Of a stretch of DNA of 64,000 bases, positions 10,604 to 57,597 are shown piece by piece. The stretch is from a virus. Its lineage: Duplodnaviria > Caudoviricetes. The notes under the pieces were generated by a model. That model did no database searches. It saw only the letters and a program-made list of their open reading frames with translations, and had not been told where the DNA came from. The first letter of the stretch is position 1; every line of letters starts with the position of its first letter. The DNA is taken from positions 45,483 to 109,482 of the IMG/VR virus record IMGVR_UViG_3300023174_005626; one strand, written 5' to 3'. A program made the position numbers and the translations under genes.

Positions 10604-10981
10604 TTAACAACAAGCAGTTTCAGAAATAAAACTATCTTGAATATTAACATAAAGTTCTTCTCTGATTGGTAAAATTAAATTTCCCTCGTCATTCTTAATT
10701 AAAAATTGACCTTGGTATCTACCAACAGTATCCGTATCGTATTTTGTAAATTTAAAATAGATATAATATTCTGTGGATGCGCCTTCAGGTAAAATTAAAC
10801 TAACAATTTCACATGGAGCAGAAACTATCTTAGGTATACCTGTTTCTACGTTAATCATAGAAAAATAAATTGAGGACACTTCAAGTGCCTGCATCAACTC
10901 AAGATACCCAGCTCTACCGTCTTTAACAACCTGCATTTTTAAAACAGGTAACGTTGCATTCTTTTTGATAAAAAATTCCAT
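10604..10981 (-). CDS. BppU-N/Ig-like structural protein
   Basis: Likely start ATG 10981 (MEFFIKKNATLPVLKMQV...DTDTVGRYQGQF); TATTTAT 4 nt upstream. Confidence 0.55.
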   Translation of the reverse strand: MEFFIKKNATLPVLKMQVVKDGRAGYLELMQALEVSSIYFSMINVETGIPKIVSAPCEIVSLILPEGASTEYYIYFKFTKYDTDTVGRYQGQFLIKNDEGNLILPIREELYVNIQDSFISETACC

Positions 10982-10997
10982 AACAATAAATATATTG

Positions 10998-12674
10998 TTA
11001 TGACTCTTTACGAAGGTCTCCGCTATAATGTTCAAATCTATTATGCTCAGTTGGTGTTGCCAACAATAAACCAGGATAAAGTTCATCCTTTTTTATTAGC
11101 TGATACATATGACTCATCCAAGTTTGTTCAAACGGATGTGCCCATGTTACGTCTAAGAACATTTTTTTATTTCCTGGTCTGCTAACAAGTTGAGGCCAGT
11201 TACAATAATAAACATCACCCATAGTATATGGTAATCCTTTATGACTTAAAACATGAGTATATACTGATTTTGGTGCATTTGGGTCTAATCCTTGGACAGG
11301 TAATCTATTTTTACCAGGCCAAAATTGTTCTCTAATGTGTTGAGGTACATTATACCAAGCCCATTGAGTTCCATTATCCCCATAAAATTCTGAATAATTA
11401 AGTTTTAAGAAATCAAAATTTTCTTTCTTCATAACTTCTAACGACTTAGTATAAAGATTTGGAATATATCTATTAAACCCATTTCTGCAAACAGCTCCTT
11501 CATTTGGAAAAAAGAACATGTCATCTTCAAAAAATAAGTAATAATCTAATTCAGTTGCGTCAAAATGTTCTGCAATAAACTGTCTTCCTCCACATATCCC
11601 TAAATTATCTTTCTTTATATGTGTAAAATTATGTTGATTACAAAGTGAGGCATATTCATCAAAAGTTGATTCGTCAGAAGAGTTATCTAATAAAAACTTT
11701 TCAGTCTTAAGTAAGTAATCTTTGTCGTATTCAGTCATTGATTTAATCAACGTTCTGAATTGATTTGGACTATTAAAAGTAATAACATACAATCCAACTT
11801 TAGATGTGTCTAAATTATTAACAGATTCAACTACTTTAGCCTCGTTCTTTAGTTTTAAATTATCGTTTTTTAAGTCCTCAAAGAATTTTCCAACTAATCC
11901 ATTACCCTCAATTTCAAAATAATTTATTAAATCAGAATGTTTATAACACATAATACTGAAAATAGATTCTTCAGTACCCATATAACCTTCTTCTAATGTT
12001 GTTTTTAATAATGAATAATAAATTCCATTAATATCACCAATAGAGTCTTTAGGTCCACCAAAAAACCCACCTCTAGCAACTTTAGTTACTTTATCTCCAG
12101 CAATTGAATTTAACTTATTATATTCAAAACCATGAATTTCGGTTTCAGCCGCATAAGGAAAACAAATAAATGAAAACTTAGAAATGTATTTTGGTAACTT
12201 ATCTAAAACTTTATCGTGTGTAAAATAACCAGGATGAACAGTATTTGTTAATCCACCATCAATCCAAAAAAGATATTCTGAATTAAATTGGTCCATAATC
12301 TTAGCGTCATTTAATAAAAACACTTTAGACATAACCAATGGATTATAGTTTTCTAATCTTGCTTGTGTTGAATCTTTTAACCAACCAGATAAATTAGACC
12401 AACTTTCGTTGTTTCTAATCTTCTGAATCATGTCAAAAAATTCGTTTTCTCTGAACCAACTCAAAGGTCTCGTAATAAACTGAGTATTATCTTTTGACCT
12501 TCTTTCAAAAACAAAATCTTTAAGTTCTTCATCACCAAAAATAATCATATTGGCATCAACACCTAATAATGAACTAAATTTGTCCAAATAATGTTGATAA
12601 GTTCTTGACCATCCTTCAGTTAGTTCATCTCTACCAATGTTCCATATCCCTGTTACTAATGTTATCTTACTCAT
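10998..12674 (-). CDS. Two-domain glycosyltransferase: HtrL/YibB-like domain plus GT-A domain
   Basis: ITLVTGIWNIGR, YLFWIDGG, GGFFGG, GTEESIF (HtrL-like); second domain with NLGICGGRQ and FFEDD. Confidence 0.7.
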   Translation of the reverse strand: MSKITLVTGIWNIGRDELTEGWSRTYQHYLDKFSSLLGVDANMIIFGDEELKDFVFERRSKDNTQFITRPLSWFRENEFFDMIQKIRNNESWSNLSGWLKDSTQARLENYNPLVMSKVFLLNDAKIMDQFNSEYLFWIDGGLTNTVHPGYFTHDKVLDKLPKYISKFSFICFPYAAETEIHGFEYNKLNSIAGDKVTKVARGGFFGGPKDSIGDINGIYYSLLKTTLEEGYMGTEESIFSIMCYKHSDLINYFEIEGNGLVGKFFEDLKNDNLKLKNEAKVVESVNNLDTSKVGLYVITFNSPNQFRTLIKSMTEYDKDYLLKTEKFLLDNSSDESTFDEYASLCNQHNFTHIKKDNLGICGGRQFIAEHFDATELDYYLFFEDDMFFFPNEGAVCRNGFNRYIPNLYTKSLEVMKKENFDFLKLNYSEFYGDNGTQWAWYNVPQHIREQFWPGKNRLPVQGLDPNAPKSVYTHVLSHKGLPYTMGDVYYCNWPQLVSRPGNKKMFLDVTWAHPFEQTWMSHMYQLIKKDELYPGLLLATPTEHNRFEHYSGDLRKES

Positions 12675-13551
12675 AAATTCTATTAAATTCTTCTAATATT
12701 TTAAAAAAGCTTTTATTTTTTTGGAACAACTCATCTGATGTTCCTTGAGGTGCATTATCTCTACACCACCATATATCAAAATGTTTTCTATAAAATAAAT
12801 CTTGGTGGTTAAAATACATCAAAGTCATAATTTGTTCCTCATGAGGTAACCCATTATCATTACCCAAAACACTTTGGGCATAATTTTCAAAAGTTGTTAC
12901 TACGTTATCCCATTTATCTCTATGACCTCCAAACATTCCACCTATGATATGAATACTTCTATCATAGTTAACATACCATTTCGGGTCTACAGTTCCTGAC
13001 CAATAATTTCTATCATTTTCTTTACCAAATAACAAAAATTTATCTCCAGTGTCTTCAATAACATTTTTTAAGAAATTATTATTAAAAAGATTACTTTCGT
13101 AAAACCTTTTCATTGAATGGTGTTGTTCGTCAAGATATTTTAAAGGAATAAGTCCACAATGGGATAATCCCGCATCAACCCAATAATAGTTGTCATAAGA
13201 TTTATCTTCATTCCACCACCAACTAAATTTAGAATATTGAATTTCAATACATCTATCTCCTCTTTTAATGTCCTCAACATTCTTTCTTGAATTGATTAAA
13301 TCTTTAAATTTACAATTCTCAAGGTCAAAAACTTGGAATTTTAATTGATTCTCAGATATATTATTTTGGGAATAAAAAAATTCTTTTAAGGATTCAATTT
13401 CTCTGTCTGATGTATAACAAAGAAAATCCGCATCAGTCATTTTAAGTAATGAAAGAAGACTATATCTATAATGTGAACCTCTGTTAGGTCTTCCACCTAA
13501 TTCGGTTCCATTTAAATCACTATAAATTGCGGTAATTATTTTAGTTGACAT
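12667..13551 (-). CDS. HtrL/YibB-like glycosyltransferase
   Basis: YYWVDAGL, IIGGMFGG, HEEQIMT; resembles the N-terminal domain of the neighbouring gene. Confidence 0.65.
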   Translation of the reverse strand: MSTKIITAIYSDLNGTELGGRPNRGSHYRYSLLSLLKMTDADFLCYTSDREIESLKEFFYSQNNISENQLKFQVFDLENCKFKDLINSRKNVEDIKRGDRCIEIQYSKFSWWWNEDKSYDNYYWVDAGLSHCGLIPLKYLDEQHHSMKRFYESNLFNNNFLKNVIEDTGDKFLLFGKENDRNYWSGTVDPKWYVNYDRSIHIIGGMFGGHRDKWDNVVTTFENYAQSVLGNDNGLPHEEQIMTLMYFNHQDLFYRKHFDIWWCRDNAPQGTSDELFQKNKSFFKILEEFNRIYE

Positions 13552-14284
13552 TATATGGTAAGTGTTGTTTTTGAATTTTTATTTTTTTGTTTTCACTTTC
13601 ATTTAAATATTGTCCAGGAATTTTAATTGGAGAATACTGATTCCAATTATATGTTTGAGTATAGAAATTATTGTACATACCATGAGACACGTCAGAATAA
13701 GAATTTTTTTGTGGAGCAATTGGTAATACAGGTGCAAAACATTGTACAACAGGGTAAACATGTTTAACCAATTGTTCATCAATAGGAAGAACATAATCTC
13801 CACTTTGGAAAGCATATTCTTTAATATTTTCTACAAGTTGGAATGATGACACATCATAGATAAGAATATTTGTTGCAAATGTTTCAGTTAATCTATCATG
13901 TGGTTTTGGTGGTAAATTAGTTAAGTCTAACAACATGTTATACTTTTCACTAATATTCATTGGTCTGTTTAAAGTTGGTGCCAAATTCATAACACCAAAC
14001 TCAATACCATCAATTTGTTTTTCCAAATCTTCAATAAATGATTTTGAATATGGCATCACATCACAATCATCTTCTATAACCATTACACGTTTATACCCTC
14101 TTTCTTTAGCAATATTTATAATTCCTAAATGAGAAAGGGTACAACCCATATAACTATTCCTATTAACAGCACTGAATACCTCGTAATCCCAACCAATATA
14201 ATCCAATTCAAATTTAATATCCTCTAATCTATCTGGTCTTGTTTCTAAGTTGACTACAAACTTTGGTAATTCATTAAATTTCAT
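13541..14284 (-). CDS. GT25-family glycosyltransferase
   Basis: FVVNLETRPDRLE, GCTLSH, VIEDD, PID motifs. Confidence 0.8.
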   Translation of the reverse strand: MKFNELPKFVVNLETRPDRLEDIKFELDYIGWDYEVFSAVNRNSYMGCTLSHLGIINIAKERGYKRVMVIEDDCDVMPYSKSFIEDLEKQIDGIEFGVMNLAPTLNRPMNISEKYNMLLDLTNLPPKPHDRLTETFATNILIYDVSSFQLVENIKEYAFQSGDYVLPIDEQLVKHVYPVVQCFAPVLPIAPQKNSYSDVSHGMYNNFYTQTYNWNQYSPIKIPGQYLNESENKKIKIQKQHLPYNVN

Positions 14285-15552
14285 TAACTAACAACATTAT
14301 GATTTAGTTGACCTGTTAATCTATCACACCAACCTTTTGATTCTGAGTGTGGCCAAACAACCCAGTATGATGGTAATTCTGTTGTTTGGAACTCTCTCCA
14401 AACTTTACAATAACCATCAGGGTCTCTCATGAAACCAGCAATTTCGTTTTTATCTGCATCCTTTCTAAATAAAGTCTCATCTTTTGCATTATGGAATGCC
14501 ACAACCCAAAAGTCATAATCTTTTTCGGGAACACTTGAATAACCAACATCAATACAATGTTTGTATATTGTTGCAAAACTATCCATCCATTCTTCTTCTG
14601 TTTCAAAGTTATATGGACTTGGTGGATATTGTTTGTCTAAACAATGTTTGTCAATTGCTCTTCTTTCAAACAATAAGCCAGAATATTTTTCATAATCTCT
14701 TAAAGTTCTAACAGTGCCAAATCCAAATGGTCCATCATGACCTTCTTGAACTTCACCATCCATACCAAATAATTTTCTATTAGTTAAATGAGAAACTCTA
14801 TTTTTTTCTCCCCAAGTCTTATCATCATCCCATTGTTTTGTTCTACCCTTACGAGTGTACTCATGGTAAACTACAGGAACATGTGGGTGGAATAAATCAT
14901 AACCCCATGTATAAGCTCTTGCCGCAATTGAAATCTCTTCTCCGTGGAAATAGTATTCAGGGTTGTGTTGAACTTCTACTGAAAACTCACCTAATGTAAA
15001 ACAGAAGTGAGCAGAATAAAATCTTGCTGTTACAGGTTTTGTCATTTCTCTCCAACCTGGAATTGTTTCAGGTAAGAAGAATACAGCACCTTCAGGAATA
15101 AATCTATCAAATGCCATTCTCCAAGCATCTTGTGCTCTACCTGCAGGGTCATTGTCAGGGTCAAAAGATGGGACATAACCCGTAAGTAGAGGTTTCTTGT
15201 ACCCATCCTTTTGTAACCCCTTTATCATTTTGATAAGAACATCATCCCAATCTTTAATGAATCTCATGTGAGAATCAATTTGAAGGGTATATGTTTCACC
15301 ATCATAAAGTTGTTGTGTTAGGTTTCTGGCCCAACAAACTCCTTTGGCGTCTTGATATGGGATATCTAAGATTTTAAATCTTTTATCGGTTCTGAATTCA
15401 TCTAAGTTATCAAAACCATCTGTTTCGCTAAATTGTCTTGCGATTGCAAAAACCAAATTTTTAGGTTTCTTAGCGTTGGCAATCATATCTTTTAACGTTG
15501 GGATTAATTGTGGGTCCCTGTAGGATGCGATTTGAATAAAAATTTTGCTCAT
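14284..15552 (-). CDS. GT60-family polypeptide/Skp1 alpha-GlcNAc-transferase homologue
   Basis: IFIQIASYRD, KGVCWAR, LQIDSHMRF (DSH motif), FHGEE, GYDLFHP...VYHEY are GT60 hallmarks. Confidence 0.88.
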   Translation of the reverse strand: MSKIFIQIASYRDPQLIPTLKDMIANAKKPKNLVFAIARQFSETDGFDNLDEFRTDKRFKILDIPYQDAKGVCWARNLTQQLYDGETYTLQIDSHMRFIKDWDDVLIKMIKGLQKDGYKKPLLTGYVPSFDPDNDPAGRAQDAWRMAFDRFIPEGAVFFLPETIPGWREMTKPVTARFYSAHFCFTLGEFSVEVQHNPEYYFHGEEISIAARAYTWGYDLFHPHVPVVYHEYTRKGRTKQWDDDKTWGEKNRVSHLTNRKLFGMDGEVQEGHDGPFGFGTVRTLRDYEKYSGLLFERRAIDKHCLDKQYPPSPYNFETEEEWMDSFATIYKHCIDVGYSSVPEKDYDFWVVAFHNAKDETLFRKDADKNEIAGFMRDPDGYCKVWREFQTTELPSYWVVWPHSESKGWCDRLTGQLNHNVVS

Positions 15553-15575
15553 TTATAGTATTTTGTCTTAAAAAT

Positions 15576-15604
15576 AAAAAACCCTCCACAAAAGTAGAGG
15601 GTTT
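15576..15604 (-). terminator. Intrinsic terminator
   Basis: Stem aaaccctc/gagggttt followed by a U-run on the minus strand, just after the 15628..16704 gene. Confidence 0.75.
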
Positions 15605-15627
15605 CTGAATATAATAAATTATTATTT

Positions 15628-16704
15628 TTAACAACCTGATGGGTCGACAGCCGTAATCTGTCCAGAACCACCTGTAACTTCAAACACCGCAGTTCCATTT
15701 GAGTAGAAACCATTCATAACTGGGGTAGTTAAACTTGAGTTGTAGTATAAGAATTCTGCAATGTTTGGACCAATTCCTCCTGCAACAGTTCCGTAGATTG
15801 TATTAGGAGCCCCACTGAAATCAATACAAGCTAAGTTTGCTGTACTACCTGTACCTAAAATATAGGTGTAATAACCAAATGTTGGTGTAGGAGATGGTGT
15901 GTTAGTTGGTGTCTTAGTCATTGTTGGTGTCATTGTTGGAGTTGGAGTTAACGTTACACATATTGTAACTGAACCTACAACATTTCCATTAGTATCTAAT
16001 TGTGAAACATATCCACCATTTTGAATAAATCCTGTCATATTAATTGTCGCATCTCCTGTTGAAATATTAGAGAATTGAGTACTTAAATCAAATTGTGAAT
16101 TATTTCCGTAAACAGTTACTGTTGGGTTATATCGTCCACAAGCTTCGTCATGAGTTGTTCCTGAGTAAACAGTAAATGCAACTTTAGAACGTGTTGGTGT
16201 TGGTGTTTGTGTTGGTGTGCACGTTGGTGTCACAGCAGCAGTTCCTGTTGGAGTGTTAGTTGGTGTTTGTGTTGTTGTGCACGTTGGTGTCACAGCAGCA
16301 GTTCCTGTTGGAGTGTTAGTTGGTGTTTTTGTGTTAGTTGGTGTCGGTGTCACAGCAGCAGTTCCTGTTGGAGTGTTAGTTGGTGTTCCTGTGTTAGTTG
16401 GTGTTTGAGTTTGAGTTGGTGTTTGAGTTTGAGTTACGCTTGGTGTTGGTGTATTTGTTGGTGTTAGTGTCGGTGTTGGAGTCGGAGTTGCAGTAGCATT
16501 TAATGGAGGGAAAGGTCCTTGATTAACTAAAAGTATCACATTTGAAAATGCAGTACTGTATGAGTTATTTATCAACCAAATGTTTTTAGTTTCACTTGGG
16601 TCCAAAGGAACTTGGTATTCCCACATATTGTCATCACATCTTCTATAACTAAAATTTGCTATTGAAGTTCCTGTGTTCGTTAAAGTATATTTGCTACATG
16701 CCAT
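15628..16704 (-). CDS. Mucin-like Thr/Pro-repeat protein with Cys-bracketed domains (putative virion surface protein)
   Basis: Long TPTPT/TPTNT tracts separating small Cys-containing domains; no signal peptide; TATTTAT upstream. Confidence 0.75.
16201..16386. repeat. 60-bp tandem repeat x3 (coding [15 protein letters not shown])
   Basis: ggtgtcacagcagcagttcctgttggagtgttagttggtgt recurs at 60-nt period. Confidence 0.9.
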
Positions 16705-16785
16705 CTTATTTCTTATTTATCTAATAAATACTAAGATTTTGGCTAATTTATTCAAGAAGAATAAAAAAATATTTTTTGTTAAAAG

Positions 16786-18150
16786 TTAAATATCTTCAAT
16801 TAGAATATATGATGTTTCAGTATTCAATAATGGTTGACCTGGATTTGCCATAAAAATACTAAAATAACCTGATGAATCTAAATTACCTGTAAATATAATA
16901 CCTCCATTAACATAGGTTGTAACTTTACAAGTTCCGTCTGATTGAATCAAACAATAAACTGAAGGACTTTGTGTTGAGTGGTTTCCATAATATGTTTGTC
17001 CTGAACTTACAGGTGTTGAACCCACTTCGTCAGTTAAAGTAAATGGAACCCCTCCATTAGAAGAAAAACTGTCAAGAGATGAACCTTTAGTTGACCTATT
17101 TACTACAATCGTATTTCTTGATATTGTTGGTGTTGGTGTTTTGGTCGGTGTTTCAGTTGGAGTTTCAGTCATCGTTGGTGTTAAACCAATTGTAACTGAT
17201 GGCGTTGGAGTTTGTGTTGGGGTTGATGTATTTGTTGGTGTTTGAGTATTTGTTGGAGTTTGACTTGGTGTTGGTGTTTGTGTAACACATAACGAACCAA
17301 ATCCAACAACCTCACCTTGTGAATCCAACTCAACAACATAATTATTAATATAGTCTTGAATAAACCCTGTCATATCAATTGTTGATGGTCCATTAAGTAC
17401 ATTCCAAAATTCTGATGATAAATCAAATTCAGGATTGTTTCCATATACAGTTACAGTATTAGTTTGCCAACAAGCATCGTCATTTGTTAATCCTGAATAA
17501 ACCAAGAAATAATATCTTGTGTTTGTTGGAGTTGGAGTTTGCGTTGGAGTTTCGGTTGGAGTTTGCGTTGGTGTTTCTGAAGATGTCTGAGTTGGAGTTT
17601 GCGTTGGTGTTTCAGTTGGTGTTGATGTTAAAGTTTCAGTCGGTGTAGGAGTTACTGTGTTTGTTGGTGTTTCAGTTGGTGTTGATGTTAAAGTTTCGGT
17701 TGGAGTTGGCGTTTGTGTTGAAGTTTTAGTTGGAGTTGGTGTAGGTGTTTCTGTTGAGGTAGGTGTTACAGTATTAGTTGGAGTTGGTGTTATGGTTGGA
17801 GTAACAGTTTGACTTGCGGTTTGAGTTGGTGTAATACCCGAAGTAACTGACGGTGTTGGTGTTGAGGTAATCGTTGGCGTTACAGTAGATGTAGGTGTTT
17901 CTGATGGTGTTTTTGTTTGTGTTATAGTTGGTGTTGGTGTTGGTGATGGACACGGAACTTCAACAACATAAGAATAAGCATATGTTGAAACATAACAATC
18001 ATAAGTTCCATACCAATAATCAGTCACATACGTAAACGGAAAAACTTGGTCACCCAAACTAATTGTTCCACCTGTACAAGGAAAGAAAGTAACGTTGGCC
18101 GTTTGACCACTTAAGTTATCACTAAAAATTGAAACTCCACAATATGACAT
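16786..18150 (-). CDS. Mucin-like Thr/Pro-repeat protein
   Basis: About 200 aa of TPTETPT-type repeats; shares the VYSG.T.D.AC...[12 protein letters not shown] domain with the neighbouring gene. Confidence 0.75.
   Translation of the reverse strand: MSYCGVSIFSDNLSGQTANVTFFPCTGGTISLGDQVFPFTYVTDYWYGTYDCYVSTYAYSYVVEVPCPSPTPTPTITQTKTPSETPTSTVTPTITSTPTPSVTSGITPTQTASQTVTPTITPTPTNTVTPTSTETPTPTPTKTSTQTPTPTETLTSTPTETPTNTVTPTPTETLTSTPTETPTQTPTQTSSETPTQTPTETPTQTPTPTNTRYYFLVYSGLTNDDACWQTNTVTVYGNNPEFDLSSEFWNVLNGPSTIDMTGFIQDYINNYVVELDSQGEVVGFGSLCVTQTPTPSQTPTNTQTPTNTSTPTQTPTPSVTIGLTPTMTETPTETPTKTPTPTISRNTIVVNRSTKGSSLDSFSSNGGVPFTLTDEVGSTPVSSGQTYYGNHSTQSPSVYCLIQSDGTCKVTTYVNGGIIFTGNLDSSGYFSIFMANPGQPLLNTETSYILIEDI
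17603..17697. repeat. 60-bp-period direct repeat within the mucin-like gene
   Basis: gttggtgtttcagttggtgttgatgttaaagtttc at about 17603 and 17663. Confidence 0.8.
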
Positions 18151-18180
18151 AATATATAAATACTTTAAAAAAATATTTTA

Positions 18181-18729
18181 TTAAAAACAAATACCGATAT
18201 CTAAAACTTGTCCGTTGGCAATATTAAATTGTGCCCATCTTGCACCATCAGAAACTATGTTACCAACGAAGACAGGTGGAATTGTACAAGAAGGATTTCC
18301 ATATACATAATCACCAATTTGTAGAGCTTCAAATGGAATTGCACTATAAATTGCAACATTTGTTGGACCATATCCCGCATCACCACAAGCATCCTCAAAA
18401 TATCCAGCACCCCACAAATTATATACAGGAATAAACGTTTGAGTAATACTTGGTGTTGGAGTATGAGTTGGCGTTTGAGTAATACTTGGTGTTCGTGTTG
18501 GTGTTATTGTTGGAGTTGGAGTTATGAAAGAACATATTCCTATGAATACAACAGTCAAGGGGGCTCCACAATCTTGAGCATATAAATCAGACGCACATAC
18601 ATAATGAGAATCTAATGGGTCAATTGGTGTAACACTAACAATACCAGTACAACCTGTCCAAGCATAATATCCTTGTTGAACGGTGTTATAGTTTGTTATC
18701 TTAAAGTAGTTACAGTCTGTTGTATACAT
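18181..18729 (-). CDS. Short mucin-like Cys-rich protein
   Basis: Two Cys-rich domains linked by TPTPTITPTRTPSITQTPTHTPTPS. Confidence 0.7.
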   Translation of the reverse strand: MYTTDCNYFKITNYNTVQQGYYAWTGCTGIVSVTPIDPLDSHYVCASDLYAQDCGAPLTVVFIGICSFITPTPTITPTRTPSITQTPTHTPTPSITQTFIPVYNLWGAGYFEDACGDAGYGPTNVAIYSAIPFEALQIGDYVYGNPSCTIPPVFVGNIVSDGARWAQFNIANGQVLDIGICF

Positions 18730-18740
18730 TTATATTAAAT

Positions 18741-20747
18741 TTAACTTGGGGTTATTGTAGGTGTTATTGTTGGTGTCGGTGTTAGACAGTTATACATTTC
18801 ATATCCCAAATCATTACAAGGTAGTGATAGGTATGTTAAATCAGGACAAAGTAATATTGTTGGTACTAGGTCATTACTAGGTATCACAATTCTACAGTTA
18901 GGACAATCAGGGTCTAATAATCCGTATCTATTCTTCAGAATTCTGAAGTTATGTTTAATCTGAGAAGCGTTGAGTGGTTCAAGATACATTCTAAATGCAC
19001 TTACATCCCCAATTAAACTACCACCAAAAATCTCTTCAAGTTTTATATGTGTTGTTAATCCTGAATAAATTGTGTTATCTAAATCATTTGTCGTCAAACA
19101 TTCAGGGTCTTGTTGGTATACAATATCATCAACGGTTTCAGGGCAACCTCCCGAAAAAGTTAGGTTGTCATGTAAACCTTGTGTACCACCACCAACTGAA
19201 ATGTTATAACCTACACCAATTTGTCTTTCTTTTGGTGTGTTTAATAACCTTGGTATAATCTCTTCAAAATCTTCTGCAACCATGAATAGTCTACCGTTAA
19301 CGTAAAACTTCAATGTACCCAATCTGTATTTTTCTTCTTCGGTCCACATGTCATTGAACTTAACAACTTCTGTTGTTGCTGGGTCGTAAGGCTGTTCGTG
19401 AGTCAATGGAGGTTCAATAAGACTCACACTATTATTCGCTGGTGTTGCCGTGAAAATTGTGTTAACAATTAATCCTAATCCACCTTTTTCATATAGGTCA
19501 CAAGTATCTAACCATTGGTTTCTTTGGAATACCGCGTCAATCTGAACCCAATGTTCAACGTTTGGATATGTTGTTTGAATACAATCATGGAAAATACCTC
19601 TTGTTGAACACCACTCACTTATTGTGACTCCCGTTTGATAAGTAAGACCTGTAAGACAAGTTCCCGAATGTTCACAGTGACCAGTGATTCTATAGGTTTT
19701 GACACATAATCTTGGGTTTCCTGTGTCACCACTTAATCTCAATGAAAGGGCATTTGACACACCATCATATAATGGGTCAGTTTCAGGATACTTTACGGTT
19801 ACGGTACAATTACAAGGACATCCGCAATTGCAATTTGTTGATGTTCCTCCTGATTGTTGGTAAACATGTATACAACTATGTTCCGCGGTTTTACCTGTTT
19901 GTTCACATTCACAAGTGTGCATACAAGTCAAACCTGAAGTTACTCTTGTATATCCTGTATCTTGTTTTGGACTTCCGTCAGGATAGTGGTAGAATTTATT
20001 CTCAGCTCTTGCTCCCATATAAAAGAAGGTACCTTTATTATTCGGATATCTTTTATTTAATCCTGTGTCAGTATTTCCTGTCCATCTATATTTCAACATG
20101 AATTCTGCAGTCCAACCTAATGAAACTCTTTGAGGAAAAACTTGATAATCATATCCTGGTATTTTATAAAACCCTTGGAAGAATCCTCCATCAAGTCTAG
20201 CGAAATAACCAACAGAATCTCCATTTGTTTCATAATTTAAATCATATGTATACGAATCATCATTCCATAATCTATTACTTGAGGTTGTGAATCCTGTGAT
20301 AGGATGCATTTTCATTCTCCTATCGTATTTGTATCTATTGTAAGTGTCTGCTGAGGTTGTATATAACCCTGTTGTAATTTCAATGGTTTCACCAGACATT
20401 TTTTTAGTCAATCCGTTATCAATACCTGTCAAACCAACATCACACAATTCAGTTACAACAGGACAAAAATTAGGGTCAACATAGTCTGGATTCCAATAAT
20501 TTTCAGAAACAATAACATCATTATCAAAACTACAAGAATTGGTTTGACAAATTGTTGTTGCAGAATTATTGAAGTCAAATTTGAATGGCATTCTATTCCC
20601 ATCATCTTCACCAATTAAAAGTGGTGAGAATACAACCTCTTGGTCATAATCTTTTTCGTCTGATGCAAGGCAAATGTCCGTTATTTCATTGAACGGAATT
20701 AGTCCCCATCTCCTAAAATTATATTGATTAATGTTTTGGTATGCCAT
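18741..20747 (-). CDS. Cys-rich putative structural protein (LamG/ConA-like segments) with TPTP tail
   Basis: WTAEFMLK, LKFYVNGRL and GDVSAFRMYLEPLNASQI resemble LamG strands; many Cys; 11 [ST]GxT motifs. Confidence 0.6.
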   Translation of the reverse strand: MAYQNINQYNFRRWGLIPFNEITDICLASDEKDYDQEVVFSPLLIGEDDGNRMPFKFDFNNSATTICQTNSCSFDNDVIVSENYWNPDYVDPNFCPVVTELCDVGLTGIDNGLTKKMSGETIEITTGLYTTSADTYNRYKYDRRMKMHPITGFTTSSNRLWNDDSYTYDLNYETNGDSVGYFARLDGGFFQGFYKIPGYDYQVFPQRVSLGWTAEFMLKYRWTGNTDTGLNKRYPNNKGTFFYMGARAENKFYHYPDGSPKQDTGYTRVTSGLTCMHTCECEQTGKTAEHSCIHVYQQSGGTSTNCNCGCPCNCTVTVKYPETDPLYDGVSNALSLRLSGDTGNPRLCVKTYRITGHCEHSGTCLTGLTYQTGVTISEWCSTRGIFHDCIQTTYPNVEHWVQIDAVFQRNQWLDTCDLYEKGGLGLIVNTIFTATPANNSVSLIEPPLTHEQPYDPATTEVVKFNDMWTEEEKYRLGTLKFYVNGRLFMVAEDFEEIIPRLLNTPKERQIGVGYNISVGGGTQGLHDNLTFSGGCPETVDDIVYQQDPECLTTNDLDNTIYSGLTTHIKLEEIFGGSLIGDVSAFRMYLEPLNASQIKHNFRILKNRYGLLDPDCPNCRIVIPSNDLVPTILLCPDLTYLSLPCNDLGYEMYNCLTPTPTITPTITPS

Positions 20748-20799: not shown

Positions 20800-21624
20800 A
20801 TGATTACCACAGATAAAGAATTTTATTCATCACCATATTATTTTTTCCTTAGAGATAAGGGAAAAGATTATTCTTTATACTTCTCGGTTGAAGAAACTTT
20901 AACTGAAGCAAGAAAAAAAGATGAGATGATTAAAGTACCAAAAGATAAGGTTAAACATGTTAAAGCATATTTGGAAAAGTTATTAAAGGGAAAAAAGAAA
21001 AAATCAACAAAAGATGTTTCAGGTGAGTTAGAAGAACTTGTTAACTTGGATGGTGCGATATCAAATAGTAAAATTCCAATCCTTGACCCTAAGCTTCATC
21101 CAAGAAAAACTATGGACCAAACTGTTGCAGCGGCAAGAATTACAAACGACCCAATATCTCGTGGATATAGAACATATTATGGTGAGTCAGTAGAAGAAGA
21201 AGTTAGTGAAATAGATATGTCAAAAGCATTTGGTTACGAAGAAACTGAAGATATGGATGGTAAAGAAACTTTTGACTACATGGTTGATGAATTAGAAATG
21301 GAACCTGAAGAGGCAATAGATAGAACTGAACAACAAGGTAAAGACCCATCAGGAAAGAAAGATAAAAAGTCAGAATATTACCACGACAAGAATTTTATTA
21401 CAAGAGCAACATTATCTGAGATTCAAAAACAAAAAGCAATCAAAATGGTTGAGGATTTGTTAATGAAGAAAAAAAATACAGATAACTCTGAGGTTGGTAA
21501 AAAAGAGTCTAGCTCTAAAGAAGCGTCAAATATTCTAAAAAAGAATCTTAAGTCTCTTCTTAAACAGATGGATAAAGAAGGATTATCAAGAAAAGATATT
21601 CTTAAACTATTAGACGGTGAATAA
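20800..21624 (+). CDS. Hypothetical charged protein (putative internal head protein)
   Basis: 274 aa; TATTTAT upstream; LTE/LEE/LSE motifs. Confidence 0.6.
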   Translation: MITTDKEFYSSPYYFFLRDKGKDYSLYFSVEETLTEARKKDEMIKVPKDKVKHVKAYLEKLLKGKKKKSTKDVSGELEELVNLDGAISNSKIPILDPKLHPRKTMDQTVAAARITNDPISRGYRTYYGESVEEEVSEIDMSKAFGYEETEDMDGKETFDYMVDELEMEPEEAIDRTEQQGKDPSGKKDKKSEYYHDKNFITRATLSEIQKQKAIKMVEDLLMKKKNTDNSEVGKKESSSKEASNILKKNLKSLLKQMDKEGLSRKDILKLLDGE

Positions 21625-22093
21625 AGATTTATATAACTCGGCCAAAGGTGAGATAGAATTTCCTCAAGACAAACAGGAACATATGAGAGTATGTTTCCAT
21701 ATGGTAAAAAATGCCGATGAAAACACCGAGGGATATAACAGAAATAAAGAACTTCAAGTACAATCGTTCATTGATTACAAACAATTAAAAAGAATTAAAA
21801 ACTTTTTTGATAATTTCAAAGGAAGTGAAAAGCATCCATCGTTTATTTTGAACGGAGGTGTGGTTATTAAAAACTGGGTTAATGATGAACTTAGAAAAAT
21901 GAGAGACTACACTAAAATGACAAAAAGAAATAAAATGGATACAGGGATGCAAAATCAATTTTTGGACCCTCATCAAAAGAAAGATTTTAATAATGTAAGA
22001 CCATCTCAAGAACATTCAAAAACTGTGGATAAATACAATGCGGCAGTCACTGAAAGTTTAAAGAGAATAAATGAATTAATATCAAAAATATAA
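21617..22093 (+). CDS. Hypothetical protein
   Basis: 158 aa, translationally coupled; C-terminal VTESLKRINELI. Confidence 0.6.
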   Translation: MNKDLYNSAKGEIEFPQDKQEHMRVCFHMVKNADENTEGYNRNKELQVQSFIDYKQLKRIKNFFDNFKGSEKHPSFILNGGVVIKNWVNDELRKMRDYTKMTKRNKMDTGMQNQFLDPHQKKDFNNVRPSQEHSKTVDKYNAAVTESLKRINELISKI

Positions 22094-49435: not shown

Positions 49436-51247
49436 TTATCTTAACTCTTTTAAGTCAAATGTTCTAACTCCATCAACTGTGATTCTACCATAGAATCTGT
49501 TGTTCACCATTTTCTTAGCGTATCTAGTCATGATACCTTTGATTGGTGTGAAGTTAAATGGATTGTACATAGTTGGAGTAAGTTGTAAAGGTACATATGG
49601 TGCGTAAATGTAACCAGTGTCTAATAAAGACGTACCTTTATGTCCAATCAACACTTGGTTTGGTGGGAAGTAAGGGTCTCTATAAACTTGGTATCTACCA
49701 GCTAAAGTACCTACTCTCTCAATACCCATGTTGTATTGGTCTTGCTCTGGAGCCGCATTTGATACGTGGAAATATTCCAAATCATCAAAAATTGCACTGA
49801 TTTCAGAAGAAACCACAATCCAGTTAGCACCACCTCTTAAGGTAGACTTGTGAATTTGTGCAGATAATTGGTTGATTGCAGTAATCAATGTTTGGTTCCA
49901 GTCTTTTTGTGTGTAAGGTTGAGCGTTACCGCCTAATCTCTTCCAACCGTTGTAATCCCATCTTAAGTTCCAAGCCGCACCTTTTCTAAGGTCTCTCAAG
50001 ATTTCTCTATCAATTTCAGCTGCAACTTGCTCAGATAATAAAGCTGTTAATTCAGCTTCAGCATCAATGTTGTGGAATGCTGCAACGTCTTGTGCCATTT
50101 CTGGAGACCATTGAGCTCTTAATTTTCTTTCAGTTACAGAAACTGTTACTGACATAAGGTCAAACGAAACCTCACCGATTCTATCTTCAAATTCTAAGTT
50201 CTTATAGATTCTATAAGTCGCTGAGAATGCGTTATTATTTGCAGTTGAAGAAGAGAATGTTGAACCTGTATAACCGTCCATAGAACCACCACAAGTGATA
50301 CATACTGGAACTTGTAAATCAACTTCTAAATAAATTTGACCGTTTACATCACAAATGTTATCATATTGACCACCATCTGTTAATGAGTTAGGGAAAACTG
50401 CAGTTTGGTTGTTGTTACCATATTGAACAATACCTTTACCATATCTTTGAGTTACAACTCTGAATAAGTAAGGACCACCACCTGCGGTTGTTGTGTTTGT
50501 AGAAACACCATTGATTGTTAAATCAGCTAAGAAAGCTTCAGTATCAATTGGGTTACCGTCTGGACCGATTAATTTTCCTGCTGCAACTTGAGCAAAACCT
50601 GACATAATAACTAATACTTTTCTGTAATCAGTCAAAGCGTATGCTGCTGGTTCAAGGTTTAAAGTTGTATTGTTCCATTGTGCTGTAACAACTGTAGTTA
50701 CCGCAGATGTAATAGAACTAAACTGTCCTTTAGAATAATCATATAAACCTGGAGGGTCTAATGCAGGTTCGTTACCTTCGTAGAATCTATCATAAAGGTC
50801 TCTTCCTGTATTATAATCATATCCAGCGTTTGGTGATGCAGGACCACTTGGTGCTCCGTAAGGAGGATAATGTATTCCTTGGTTGTCATCTTGACCACCA
50901 CCTACTTCGTAAGATTGAATGTTAGGTACAAAGTAGAATAATTTACCGATTGGTAAGTTCATCGCTTGTACTGAAACGATATCGTTTGCTAATAATTTAG
51001 AGAAAACTCTTCTAACGATAGGGAAAACAACTGTTTCAAATGCACCTGTATCAGATGTAGATGATGCTTCATTGATTAAAAATGATGCTTGGTTTTCGTA
51101 AAGTTGAGCTACGTTTTCTCTCATGTGACCTTTAAGACCTTCTAAAAAGCCTAATTTGTCCCATTTGTTGATTGTGTCTTCTTTGATAACTTTAAGGTGC
51201 TTAAGACCGATGTTACCAACAAGACCTGATTCTAATAATGCTCCCAT
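49436..51247 (-). CDS. gp23: Major capsid protein (T4 gp23-like)
   Basis: VRRVFSKLLANDIVSVQAMNLPIG, RKLRAQWSPEMAQDVAAFHNIDAEAEL, EIDREIL, YAPYVPL, GIMTRY. Confidence 0.96.
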   Translation of the reverse strand: MGALLESGLVGNIGLKHLKVIKEDTINKWDKLGFLEGLKGHMRENVAQLYENQASFLINEASSTSDTGAFETVVFPIVRRVFSKLLANDIVSVQAMNLPIGKLFYFVPNIQSYEVGGGQDDNQGIHYPPYGAPSGPASPNAGYDYNTGRDLYDRFYEGNEPALDPPGLYDYSKGQFSSITSAVTTVVTAQWNNTTLNLEPAAYALTDYRKVLVIMSGFAQVAAGKLIGPDGNPIDTEAFLADLTINGVSTNTTTAGGGPYLFRVVTQRYGKGIVQYGNNNQTAVFPNSLTDGGQYDNICDVNGQIYLEVDLQVPVCITCGGSMDGYTGSTFSSSTANNNAFSATYRIYKNLEFEDRIGEVSFDLMSVTVSVTERKLRAQWSPEMAQDVAAFHNIDAEAELTALLSEQVAAEIDREILRDLRKGAAWNLRWDYNGWKRLGGNAQPYTQKDWNQTLITAINQLSAQIHKSTLRGGANWIVVSSEISAIFDDLEYFHVSNAAPEQDQYNMGIERVGTLAGRYQVYRDPYFPPNQVLIGHKGTSLLDTGYIYAPYVPLQLTPTMYNPFNFTPIKGIMTRYAKKMVNNRFYGRITVDGVRTFDLKELR

Positions 51248-55737: not shown

Positions 55738-57597
55738 TTAGGAATTTAGTAACTTATCCAATTCTTTTGAAATTTCTCCTAAAGATTCTTGTCCATGACC
55801 TAAATCTATGAATGTTGAACCGTCAATTAAGTTACTTTCAATCAACATGTTTAAGCTATTTAATTTTGACTCAGGTATTGGTGGTTCTCCTTCAGTTGGT
55901 GGTGGAGGAGCTTCTCCTCCTAATTCTTCACCTCCTGGAGGTGGTGGCGGTGGTGGTGCCCCTGAGTCTCCACCTGGAGGAGGTCCTAATTCTTCTGTTC
56001 CACCTGGAGTTGTTGATGCTCCCGCTGATGGCGTAGAACCCGAAGGACTTCCGTAAAGTTTGTCAATATTATCAAAAATACCTGTTTTAGTAATAACAGT
56101 TGGAGTTGCTTTAAGTTCTTCTCCAACGGCTCTTTCAATTCTTTGTTGTTGTAAGTCAAGTCTAATTTCTTCGTCTGACCAACCAAAAATGTGTTTCTTA
56201 GCCCAAGTAGATGATGTTGCCTGAATACCATTTCCAGGGTCAGCAACCAAGTCTTTATATAATAATATTTTTTCTTTCCAAATATCTACTTTAAGTAAAT
56301 CTGCTTGTGTAGATGGGTTAGTTAATCCTAATGTGAAGTTTTGTAATTCGTCTTCAAATCCTAATAAGAATAAATGTACAATTGCAATCTTATTAAGTTC
56401 TTGAATCATGCTTTTTTGAATTCTATTAATCGTACGGGCAAATCTGATATCTTGTAACGCCAAATTTTTTCCGTCACCAACAACTTCTTCAAATCCTAAA
56501 AATGCTTTAGGTACACGAAGAGCTGTTAATAATTTCTTTTGAATATATTCAATATCTGCAATTTCTGATAGGTTTGTTGCCCCTGGTAATGTATCAATTG
56601 GGCTTGGTGCCGCTGGGTCTCTAACAGGAACAAAATAATCTTGGTCAACTGCCATTTGATTAAATCTCATATCTACGTTACCTGTCTTACTATCAACAAT
56701 TTGTTCTCTTTTAAATTTGTTTGCAACACGTTGTACATATGCCTCAACATCATCATCATTCATATTTCCAACAAATACCTTAAAGATTCTTCTTTCAGGT
56801 GCTCTTGAAGTTCTATAGATTAACATCGCATCTTCACACAATAAAAGTTGTTTCCAAGTTCTTCTTGCTTTTTCTAACATAGAAGTACCATAAGGAAGTT
56901 TTCTATCATCACCTAATAATCTAAAATGAGCAATTTCCCATGATTGAAATTCCATGTTTTTGTTCTTCCAAGTAAAATGTAATGCTTTTTTATCTTTGTC
57001 TAATTCTTTTGTAATATCTACCGAAATCTTTTGACTAACTCCAACTTCATGTCTTTCAATTTCAATTGTTGGTAATTGTTGAACACCAACAACTCCTTTC
57101 TCAGGGTCTAATTTCAAATACACAAAGTTATCACCATACTTACAAGTGTTTCTTGTCCACATAGGTAAGTTAGTGTTAATGTCTAATGCATTGTTAAATA
57201 AATCGGCTAATACACCCTTAATTCTTTTTGATTCAGAATAAATTTGTAATATAAATCCATCTTCATTTGTTGTTGTAGATTCTTCAGCATAAATGTCCAA
57301 AGCGGCAGAAATCTCAGGAGTATATTCCATTGATTCATAATCATACTGAGAAGATAATCTTGTTGGCTCATAATAAATTGCTTGAGAATATAAGTTATTC
57401 TCAACTTTAGCCCATTGATTTGCTAAATAAAAAGTTTGTTGTGCTTGAAGTTTTTCGGTTTCGTATTCTTGTTTGTCTGTTGTACGCAACAATTCCTTTT
57501 TATCAAACTTAAATGTTGGATAATCTTGTCCTAAAAGTGAATTAGGTCCAAATGTTTGCGACAATCGTTGCCAAACTGTCATGTTCTGTTCTGCCAT
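55738..57597 (-). CDS. gp20: Portal protein (T4 gp20-like)
   Basis: PEISAALDIYAEE, YGTSMLE, EDAMLIYRTSRAPERRIF, IDTLPG, ALRVPK. Confidence 0.95.
   Translation of the reverse strand: MAEQNMTVWQRLSQTFGPNSLLGQDYPTFKFDKKELLRTTDKQEYETEKLQAQQTFYLANQWAKVENNLYSQAIYYEPTRLSSQYDYESMEYTPEISAALDIYAEESTTTNEDGFILQIYSESKRIKGVLADLFNNALDINTNLPMWTRNTCKYGDNFVYLKLDPEKGVVGVQQLPTIEIERHEVGVSQKISVDITKELDKDKKALHFTWKNKNMEFQSWEIAHFRLLGDDRKLPYGTSMLEKARRTWKQLLLCEDAMLIYRTSRAPERRIFKVFVGNMNDDDVEAYVQRVANKFKREQIVDSKTGNVDMRFNQMAVDQDYFVPVRDPAAPSPIDTLPGATNLSEIADIEYIQKKLLTALRVPKAFLGFEEVVGDGKNLALQDIRFARTINRIQKSMIQELNKIAIVHLFLLGFEDELQNFTLGLTNPSTQADLLKVDIWKEKILLYKDLVADPGNGIQATSSTWAKKHIFGWSDEEIRLDLQQQRIERAVGEELKATPTVITKTGIFDNIDKLYGSPSGSTPSAGASTTPGGTEELGPPPGGDSGAPPPPPPPGGEELGGEAPPPPTEGEPPIPESKLNSLNMLIESNLIDGSTFIDLGHGQESLGEISKELDKLLNS

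Follow-up and report, generated by a model that had tools for sequence, protein, structure and literature searches.

Serine-rich repeat (SRR) adhesins, which are served by GtfA/GtfB and accessory glycosyltransferases (GTs), and the autotransporter heptosyltransferases follow a common logic. A soluble cytoplasmic enzyme primes a long Ser/Thr tract, and neighboring GTs extend the product. To our knowledge, phage-encoded protein glycosylation is documented for very few phages, and none of these has a mucin-type initiator. Here, we describe a candidate for such a system in a Caudoviricetes genome. The analyzed stretch of 64,000 nucleotides (nt), called the window, comprises bases 45483-109482 of the 109,482-base IMG/VR viral record IMGVR_UViG_3300023174_005626. 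Between positions 10998 and 20747 of the window, an array of four genes for proteins carrying Thr/Pro (TP) tracts, or in one case a short TP tail, is followed on the minus strand by a cassette of four overlapping GT genes led by a member of family GT60. The reading that we favor, and consider rather probable from the comparative tests described below, is that the locus directs cytoplasmic, phage-encoded mucin-type O-glycosylation of TP-linker proteins.

The GT60 enzymes are described as protist polypeptide alpha-N-acetylglucosamine (GlcNAc) transferases that act either on Ser/Thr of mucin domains or on the hydroxyproline (Hyp) of Skp1, and the Skp1 enzymes are soluble cytosolic proteins (PMC8724618, PMC6939170). 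The absence of a ricin-type lectin domain is given as a feature that separates GT60 from GT27 (PMC8724618). The window enzyme resembles the protist enzymes (the mucin-type initiators of Dictyostelium and Trypanosoma cruzi, and Skp1 Gnt1) in its Pfam family, its DxH motif and its lack of a ricin-type lectin domain. Like the Skp1 enzyme it is soluble, and its candidate acceptors are Thr-rich and Pro-rich arrays, as are the mucin domains of the protist system. In contrast to the protist mucin-type enzymes, which reside in the Golgi, it belongs to a prokaryotic and viral branch that groups with Bacteroidota homologs. Its partner enzymes (GT25, HtrL and GT2-like) are unlike the protist extension enzymes, and it has an additional C-terminal region (approximately residues 296-422) that lies outside the family model, yet is conserved among homologs. 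The comparison with the SRR and autotransporter systems reveals the same logic, and a GT9 (heptosyltransferase-type) gene flanks a second TP cluster in a complete relative of the window phage. Their enzymes are GT4 or BAHT, whereas the window enzyme is GT60; no accessory Sec system takes part, and phage proteins need no export. The TP neighbors of bacterial GT60 genes have twin-arginine (Tat)-like N-termini, judged by eye, unlike proteins that follow the accessory Sec route of the SRR adhesins.

Glycosylation by a virus of its own structural proteins is a known kind of process; the new element here is the combination of a GT60-type initiator with dedicated Thr-Pro tracts. In mycobacteriophages (Freeman et al. 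2023, as described in PMC12619734), phage GTs modify the phage's own structural proteins in the cytoplasm, and a shielding role has been proposed. The glycans are located at the C-termini of capsid and tail-tube subunits (PMC12619734), whereas the major capsid protein (MCP; 49436-51247) of the window carries no TP tract. In the window, the candidate substrates are instead distinct modular proteins whose tracts reach 151 residues, and the initiator is of the GT60 type. The moraphages are large freshwater phages with predicted Bacteroidota hosts that have four putative GT orthogroups among their core genes, the role of which is left open (PMC12619734). They resemble the window phage as freshwater jumbo phages with a predicted Bacteroidota host and with a Rhodothermus phage among the MCP relatives; their genomes reach 307 kb (PMC12619734), as compared to 317-326 kb for the complete relatives of the window phage. 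The word "threonine" is absent from the moraphage paper (PMC12619734).

A cassette homologous to that of the window is found in the Xanthomonas jumbo phage XacN1, in Xoo-sp13 and in the Stenotrophomonas phages CM1 and RAS14, and XacN1 also has many TP open reading frames (ORFs). This group differs from the window in its lineage, its betaproteobacterial-type GT60, a carbamoyltransferase insertion, the lack of GT25 and the dispersal of its TP genes. XacN1 virions are reported to contain at least two glycoproteins, credited by the authors to phage GTs including ORF334 (the GT60 homolog), with no substrates named (PMC5852040). The main text of that paper does not give the ORF numbers of the TP proteins and does not connect the GTs with TP tracts (PMC5852040). 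The literature searched contained nothing on GT60 or PF11397 in phages or on mucin-like or proline-threonine phage glycosylation that makes this link.

Thr/Pro-tract proteins and the glycosyltransferase cassette

A TP tract was defined as a run of 20 residues in which Thr and Pro together number at least 12. Four ORFs in the window, and no others, contain such tracts, and they encode proteins of 358, 454, 182 and 279 amino acids (aa). The tracts sum to 547 residues, of which 41% are Thr, 22% Pro and 6% Ser, and their sequence is mostly TPT, with Thr and Pro in regular alternation. The proteins have a beads-on-a-string architecture in which TP tracts of 32-151 residues lie between globular, Cys-bearing modules of 60-107 residues. 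Throughout the 109-kb contig, the TPTPT-coding pattern occurs 22 times and the reversed control pattern does not occur. The possibility that the tracts are an artefact of composition was rejected: the reversed-pattern controls gave 0-5 in every genome counted, and the modules of the ORFs are conserved.

Close relatives of the window GT60 are encoded on 373 viral contigs, and the best 80 of these loci, with GT60 84-98% identical to that of the window, were fetched with their flanks for comparison. The gene nearest the cassette (15628..16704, minus strand) encodes the 358-aa protein, which has three modules and TP tracts of 110 and 32 residues. Its N-terminal module is present in 68 of the 80 related loci at 64% median identity (GT60, 84-98%), and tblastn found no relative of it in a named phage. 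The 454-aa protein (16786..18150, minus strand) also has three globular modules, between which lie tracts of 151 and 60 residues. Its middle module shares 59% identity with the corresponding module of the 358-aa protein, and across the tract region the protein matches phrog_15511, a family annotated as having unknown function. The 182-aa protein (18181..18729, minus strand) consists of two small Cys-bearing modules joined by a 36-residue TP linker. Its modules are present in 35 of the 80 related loci, and in the Atlas it falls into unnamed virus-only clusters and nothing else. A fifth TP gene lies far from the others (63080..63919, minus strand), upstream of the packaging and head module; its 279-aa product has a 142-residue TP tract between two small modules, and equivalent TP loci are present in complete relatives.

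The array starts with a gene for a 668-aa protein (18741..20747, minus strand) that is globular and rich in Cys (27 Cys) and ends in a 16-residue tail, TPTPTITPTITPS. This protein possibly carries a ConA/LamG-like lectin domain, judging from a Laminin_G_3 lead in the Atlas that comes from 36% of the members of one cluster. Of eight larger TP proteins that occupy this position in related loci, one shows LamG_3 domains clearly (E 2.4e-34). Both halves of the 668-aa protein are kept in 35-38 of the 80 related loci at approximately 78% median identity. It has no Pfam or PHROG match and no named-phage relative by tblastn, and a comparison with the PDB gave chance-level matches only, for this protein as well as for the 558-aa enzyme of the cassette.

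None of the five TP proteins and four enzymes has an N-terminal hydrophobic stretch or a transmembrane-like segment (the maximum 19-residue Kyte-Doolittle mean is 1.64), the absence of a signal peptide being judged by the hydrophobicity profile and not by a dedicated signal-peptide predictor. As a result, the enzymes and the TP proteins are expected to occupy the same compartment.

The first gene of the cassette (14284..15552, minus strand) encodes a GT60-type GT of 422 aa. It matches PF11397, which we take to be CAZy GT60, at E 2.6e-64 (218.3 bits against a cut-off of 21) in two stretches, the best of which aligns residues 54-295 to model positions 94-350 of 352. A genome-wide profile search gave the same assignment, and the protein also matches phrog_24687, annotated as a glycosyltransferase (E 8.6e-164). 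PF11397 is its sole Pfam match at E <= 0.1, and a ricin-type lectin domain is absent. The IASYRD and D-S-H motifs are present, the DxH motif being D93-S94-H95. In an alignment of 39 GT60 homologs with identities down to 36%, D93, H95, E205, E206 and H230 are invariant. The roles of such residues are drawn from the GT27/GT60 literature, in which DxH is the metal-binding motif and is accompanied by a distal conserved His. Searches of the PDB by sequence and by profile gave no match for this protein, and NCBIfam gave none for the GT60, GT25 or 294-aa proteins. We propose that the 422-aa enzyme is an initiating polypeptide N-acetylhexosamine (HexNAc) transferase.

The next gene (13541..14284, minus strand), the start of which overlaps the GT60 stop, encodes a GT25-family GT of 247 aa that matches PF01755 at E 1.3e-9 (38.7 bits, cut-off 24), the best stretch covering only residues 46-101. 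Its homologs amount to 43 distinct sequences among the related viral loci, and none was found in XacN1-type or bacterial loci. The third gene (12667..13551, minus strand) encodes an HtrL-like protein of 294 aa with no Pfam match, which is a remote paralog of the N-terminal half of the fourth. Pairwise BLASTP is weak (E 3e-4), and hhalign of its family against the HtrL half of the 558-aa family gives 99.5% probability (E 7.6e-23, 222 columns). The fourth gene (10998..12674, minus strand) encodes a two-domain enzyme of 558 aa, in which residues 3-255 form an HtrL_YibB domain (PF09612, E 1.5e-18, 67.8 bits, cut-off 24.1). The protein stays under the NCBIfam YibB equivalog cut-off (76.6 versus 264.9 bits), and it is therefore a member of the HtrL family and not an ortholog of E. 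coli YibB. Its C-terminal half has no Pfam match of its own and would be a GT2-like GT-A domain by transfer from a 62%-identical Saprospiraceae homolog that passes PF00535 (26.7 versus 23.3 bits, residues 305-408). Among 10 homologs scanned, one passes PF00535, two fall below the cut-off and seven have no match.

The overlaps of 1, 11 and 8 nt between the four GT genes make a single operon very probable. Upstream of GT60, the 75 nt that follow the last TP gene contain a terminator-like hairpin (15577..15606, minus strand) of 13 pairs followed by a T-run. Since terminators in the region do not exceed those in shuffled sequences (5 versus 4.6), this call relies on the length of the stem and on its intergenic position. 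A hairpin located 5' of GT60 makes it likely that the TP genes belong to a separate upstream transcript.

Much of this gene content had been reported in a preliminary description of the sequence. Its four minus-strand genes at 20747-15628 and fifth at 63080-63919 are all genuine ORFs, the TP tracts are there (with only the short tail in the 668-aa protein), and its view that the proteins lack signal peptides agrees with the hydrophobicity profiles. The GT60, GT25 and HtrL-like labels hold as well, and the profile assignment of 14284..15552 to GT60, which it had suggested as a check, lies far above threshold. Two of its statements are correct in part. The TP genes were said to be immediately followed by a GT operon, which is true of the overlapping GT genes, but the hairpin intervenes between the two groups. 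For the 558-aa protein, described as HtrL+GT-A, the HtrL half passes its own profile, while the GT-A half is reached through the homolog only.

Recurrence of GT60 with Thr/Pro tracts in phages and bacteria

The association of GT60 with TP genes is tightly conserved in the lineage of the window. In 76 of the 80 related loci, GT60 is preceded on its own strand by between one and five TP-tract ORFs and is followed by none; fewer than 300 nt of upstream sequence are available in the other four loci, which are uninformative. This is the synteny of one lineage, and taken alone it shows conservation and not an independent association. The TP proteins of these loci range from 97 to 1786 aa, and their modules have median identities of 42-64%, as opposed to 84-98% for GT60. 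Such faster evolution is typical of exposed proteins that interact with the host.

A search of 50,697 named phage records by tblastn identified GT60 in four, namely XacN1, Xoo-sp13, CM1 and RAS14. Between the window and the XacN1 cassette, identity is 46% for GT60, 42% for the 558-aa enzyme (ORF330) and 30% for the 294-aa protein (ORF332), and the family-B DNA polymerases (PolB) of the two phages barely align. In the XacN1-type cassettes, a 766-aa carbamoyltransferase gene is inserted directly after GT60 (L004:10415-12712, with equivalents in L003 and L005), which suggests a carbamoylated sugar; the window is without it. XacN1 contains 15 ORFs with TP tracts; six of them form a cluster, others lie beside the genes for the tail sheath and a "structural protein", and several are in structural modules. 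Among them are ORF174, ORF180, ORF232-237, ORF325, ORF350, ORF369, ORF370, ORF372 and ORF384, and the tracts contain neither Lys nor Arg.

A third lineage was found from the GT60 of a low-GC marine contig (L141). It comprises ten viral loci of podophages with genomes of approximately 60 kb. In nine of the ten, either a TP protein of 1092-2303 aa ends approximately 490 nt upstream of GT60, or TP ORFs abut GT60, and eight of these nine loci also have a second TP protein downstream. In one locus (L205), the TP protein of 2151 aa matches phrog_14478, "virion structural protein" (E 4e-211), and the downstream TP protein of 640 aa has a crAss muzzle C-terminal domain (E 2.7e-20). GT60 is followed by a gene with two GT32-type DXD domains and lies inside the structural module, with matches to structural PHROGs in the flanking genes; the "structural" labels of PHROG and GenBank are annotations made partly by similarity. 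Relatives that have a homologous structural protein (a spring-water podovirus with 48.5% identity, Cellulophaga phage phi46:3 and Flavobacterium phage elemoF) have no PF11397 match and contain 0, 1 and 0 TPTPT motifs. The contrast is at its cleanest in this lineage, which also supplies the sole direct hint that TP proteins linked to GT60 may be parts of the virion.

The TPTPT-coding pattern was counted genome-wide against its reversed control. Among GT60-positive genomes, the counts were 22 versus 0 in G000, 36 versus 3 in G001, 64 versus 0 in G002 and 64 versus 0 in G008; 85 versus 4 in XacN1, 71 versus 2 in Xoo-sp13 and 36 versus 3 in RAS14; and, in the third lineage, 40 versus 1 in G009 and 47 versus 0 in G010. 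All the motifs of G009 and G010 (40 and 47) lie in two clusters flanking GT60. Six GT60-negative capsid relatives or host-matched phages, in which PF11397 had no match, gave 0 versus 0, 0 versus 1, 0 versus 0, 4 versus 5, 0 versus 0 and 2 versus 1. The three GT60-negative relatives of the third lineage gave 0 versus 1, 1 versus 0 and 0 versus 0. The enrichment is therefore present in all nine GT60-positive phage genomes, from three lineages, and in none of the nine GT60-negative relatives, although these 18 genomes constitute only three lineage contrasts and G002 and G008 are near-duplicates.

The GT60 family is large. The PF11397-type family comprised 6,762 protein hits and 4,465 representative clusters at E <= 0.001, and many of the relatives carry two to four GT60 domains. 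Such multidomain relatives are in many cases giants of 1300-2461 aa (P0122, P0123, P0125 and others). Fusion of GT60 to its own substrate was rejected as the norm, a TP tract being present in only one of 150 representatives. Relatives are encoded in more than 555 stretches of cellular genomes, the best 80 of which were analyzed. An enzyme of the 558-aa type adjoins GT60 or is fused to it in 35 of these 80 bacterial loci (hand count), with fusion in three. A TP-tract ORF lies within 10 kb of GT60 in 24 of the 80. In 11 of the 24, it is at most 300 nt from the GT module, as compared to 2.9 expected from random placement in the same loci; this count left out TP ORFs with fewer than 40 covered residues or with more than 100 nt of overlap with a GT ORF, and L152 was dropped thereby.

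In seven bacterial loci from five phyla, the small TP ORF encodes, by eye, a twin-arginine-type N-terminus followed by little but the TP tract. Such small Tat-like proteins lie beside the GT60 modules of L152, L158, L183, L191, L188, L124 and L125. If they are glycosylated in the cytoplasm, the Tat export of a glycoprotein would be unusual. Other bacterial TP neighbors are large proteins with BNR/fn3, LamG_3 or glycoside-hydrolase-like domains. In two Gemmatimonadota loci (L132:8510-9235 and L136:9230-9955), a protein that joins a PqqD domain (above the Pfam cut-off) to a C-terminal TP tract is encoded directly upstream of GT60. PqqD is a peptide-recognition element of the pathways for ribosomally synthesized and post-translationally modified peptides.

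The closest cellular pair is on a contig of a Saprospiraceae metagenome-assembled genome (MAG; L125:6349-13092), where GT60 is 69% and a 568-aa HtrL+GT2 enzyme 62% identical to those of the phage. Divergent from this pair are genes for a sulfotransferase and a 381-aa protein with a Tat-like N-terminus, an S/T/P tract and a sorting domain of the type IX secretion system (T9SS). The island is a clue to the host, and it suggests a bacterial glycoprotein of mucin-like type that is possibly sulfated. It is flanked by housekeeping genes (UvrB, NIF3, NAD kinase, Omp85 and OmpA). The possibility that the closest "bacterial" matches are binned phage DNA was rejected because of these flanks and the lack of a capsid homolog in five MAGs; for the short contigs L122, L123, L126, L127 and L129, a bacterial or phage origin is ambiguous.

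A quick maximum-likelihood tree was built from 73 GT60 sequences with at least 330 aligned residues and was rooted at the midpoint. The window lineage (support 100) falls within a 13-row set with Saprospiraceae, Lewinellaceae, other Bacteroidia and one Melainabacteria-labelled MAG row (support 89), and this set lies inside a largely Bacteroidota clade. The other half of the tree (support 95) contains the XacN1 group, which is placed with Oxalobacteraceae, Neisseriaceae and Burkholderiaceae (support 100). The query sequence of the third lineage groups with Cytophagaceae-type rows. Since the GT60s of the window and XacN1 are in different halves of the tree, their co-occurrence with TP tracts is not one inherited accident. 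Provisionally, the phage enzymes appear to be separate acquisitions from bacteria resembling the host group of each phage, and the placement of the window lineage suggests a host in the Bacteroidota, possibly in the Saprospiraceae.

The preliminary description had called for the co-occurrence of GT60 and TP genes to be checked across related phages, and the 76 of 80 related loci, the genome-wide contrast, the third lineage and the bacterial excess all show it. Its central claim, that the phage glycosylates its own TP proteins, gains support from these four comparisons. Its wording of a "eukaryote-like" coat is misleading: the family is widespread in bacteria, and the grouping of the window GT60 with Bacteroidota homologs means that an origin from eukaryotes is not required.

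Proposed pathway and alternative acceptors

In the pathway that we favor, glycosylation would begin with the soluble GT60 (14284-15552), which would attach a sugar to Thr within the long T-P-x-T tracts of modular proteins that the phage itself encodes. If the enzyme behaves like every characterized GT60, this sugar would be an alpha-HexNAc derived from UDP-GlcNAc. The products of the three overlapping genes downstream, which supply GT25, two HtrL-type domains and a GT2-like domain, would then extend it to a short glycan. The densely glycosylated tracts could serve as stiff, protease-resistant stalks that hold the Cys-bearing or lectin-like modules away from the particle. Such stalks may form fibers, whiskers or decoration used in adhesion or shielding. 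A virion location for the TP proteins of the window would follow from what is seen in the other lineages.

Several observations weigh against this pathway. The TP proteins of the window match no known virion protein in the Pfam, PHROG, named-phage and Atlas searches, and the TP and GT genes are probably separate transcripts and not one operon. The XacN1-type cassettes have no adjoining TP gene, save a giant ORF a few kb away, and most TP ORFs of these phages are far from the cassette. The glycoprotein bands of XacN1 are not tied to ORFs in the main text (PMC5852040). One of the ten third-lineage loci has no TP ORF in the 5.6 kb upstream of GT60. The genome-wide contrast comes down to the three lineages, and the GT60 tree, a quick search with SH-aLRT support only, is provisional. 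Among bacteria, 56 of the 80 loci have no TP ORF within 10 kb, and the TP ORF is not adjacent in 13 of the remaining 24, indicating that the GT60 family may have other acceptors.

These bacterial counts also favor a different product, a non-protein glycan that the cassette would build or modify, such as host lipopolysaccharide (LPS), capsule, exopolysaccharide or a free or lipid-linked oligosaccharide. The TP tracts would then be plain flexible linkers, and the neighboring proteins would bind or act on the glycan. GT25 and HtrL_YibB are families known from LPS loci, according to their Pfam descriptions, which counts further against a protein acceptor, and several neighboring TP proteins have carbohydrate-related domains (LamG_3, BNR and glycoside-hydrolase-like). 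In a jumbo-phage review, GT clusters of cyanophages are described as modifiers of surface polysaccharides (PMC7824862). The characterized GT60 enzymes, however, act on polypeptides (PMC8724618, PMC6939170), and none of the four window enzymes has a membrane segment. The link is to the tract itself, the small bacterial neighbors being a Tat-like signal and a TP tract with little more, and homologous virion proteins are without tracts exactly where GT60 is absent. XacN1 virions, moreover, contain glycoproteins (PMC5852040). We regard a non-protein glycan as unlikely.

A second alternative keeps the TP proteins as substrates and changes the acceptor residue. A phage 2-oxoglutarate (2OG)-Fe(II) prolyl hydroxylase would create Hyp in the TP tracts, and GT60 would act on it in the manner of Skp1 Gnt1, producing something that resembles the Hyp-rich glycoproteins of plants. 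One characterized branch of GT60 does act on Skp1 Hyp (PMC6939170), and the tracts, with 22% Pro in regular alternation, would offer many sites. The preliminary description noted that the window encodes no prolyl hydroxylase, which is true of the whole contig, but three PF13640 2OG-Fe(II) oxygenases, a family of the prolyl 4-hydroxylase type, are encoded in each of the complete relatives G001 and G002. One of these oxygenases is a 246-aa protein encoded next to a 330-aa ORF. The PF13640 oxygenases are generic, and their genes are not beside the TP or GT clusters. No PF13640 match was obtained in XacN1 or Xoo-sp13, both of which possess the cassette and an abundance of TP tracts, and the dominant residue of the tracts is Thr, at 41%. 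A Hyp acceptor therefore appears improbable.

Glycosylation of DNA bases against restriction, as by the T-even glucosyltransferases, would suit the position of the GT genes, which immediately precede PolB in the same orientation (the cassettes of XacN1-type phages are also near PolB). The C-terminal GT-A half of the 558-aa protein gives weak, sub-threshold matches to DNA-glycosylating families, which count against a protein acceptor (phrog_842, a beta-glucosyl-hydroxymethylcytosine alpha-glucosyltransferase, E 1.3e-4, and TAGT below its cut-off). We nevertheless consider DNA glycosylation very improbable: the ThyA homologs of G001 and XacN1 pass the thymidylate synthase equivalog (310 and 219 bits versus 108) and show no hint of a hydroxymethylase, restriction mapping of XacN1 DNA was done with BssHII, NaeI and SpeI (PMC5852040), the third-lineage GT60 sits in a structural module, and a paper on glycosylated 5-hydroxycytosine does not contain the terms XacN1, carbamoyl, Stenotrophomonas or PF11397.

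Genome context and implications

The window phage is a giant freshwater jumbo phage with a genome of approximately 320 kb. The source record is rated 35% complete by CheckV, which corresponds to roughly 310 kb, and complete relatives with the same GT60 locus have genomes of 317-326 kb. The window has a GC content of approximately 32% and encodes PolB, a helicase, a T4-type MCP of 603 aa (49436-51247), a portal (55738-57597) and the large terminase TerL (57635-59395); no tRNA was found in it. The nearest named relatives of the capsid protein are Microcystis phage Mel-JY01, Flavobacterium phage immuto and two uncultured huge phages, at 41-46% identity over partial length. The capsid-family match of the MCP begins only at about residue 287, and most named relatives align only over residues 350-597 or so, so that a long N-terminal region is unexplained. 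A megablast of the locus against named phages gave no match.

Three very acidic, low-complexity proteins of 434, 249 and 406 aa are encoded between the fifth TP gene and the terminase (59402-63060), one of them with PAPAP-type stretches; they may be scaffold or internal head proteins. As called, a 160-aa ORF (10604-11086) shares 89 nt with the 3' end of the 558-aa gene, but its true start is probably later. It occupies most of the 484-nt gap before PolB. No Pfam match was obtained for this ORF or for the genes at 20800-21624 and 21617-22093.

The complete relatives contain further genes related to sugar metabolism. Each of G001, G002 and G008 has 2-8 genes of the NAD-dependent epimerase/dehydratase family, and no sugar nucleotidyltransferase was found in these three genomes. 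This combination fits the tailoring of nucleotide sugars supplied by the host, and the eight epimerase/dehydratase genes of G001 are a large investment in it. G008 has a second TP cluster at 299500-314500 (L202), which encodes four large proteins, one of them with an SprB repeat. It is divergent from a GT9-family gene and a gene that joins an FkbM methyltransferase to a GT4 domain. A GT9 gene is also found beside the XacN1 cassette.

The broader bacterial counterpart may be the more important finding. We suggest, tentatively, that GT60 together with dedicated TP-tract proteins constitutes a widespread and undescribed prokaryotic mucin-type system. In its bacterial arm, a soluble GT60 and an HtrL/GT2 enzyme, present in many phyla, would glycosylate small TP proteins in the cytoplasm before Tat-type export or T9SS display, with variants that include a sulfotransferase neighbor or a PqqD fusion. 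Phages would have acquired the enzyme on three or more occasions, in each case from their respective host group, and would have grown TP stalks on virion proteins to make use of it. Such a system could be a bacterial counterpart, and possibly the ancestor, of eukaryotic mucin initiation.

If the favored pathway is correct, an abundant group of freshwater jumbo phages (the window lineage), the XacN1-type phages and a group of Bacteroidota-type podophages would all carry dense O-glycans, synthesized in the cytoplasm, on parts of their virions. This would have consequences for adsorption, stability, immune recognition and phage engineering. GT60, so far a protist family, would then extend broadly across prokaryotes and have substrates that can be identified, and a simple rule, a TP tract beside PF11397, would predict glycoprotein substrates from sequence.

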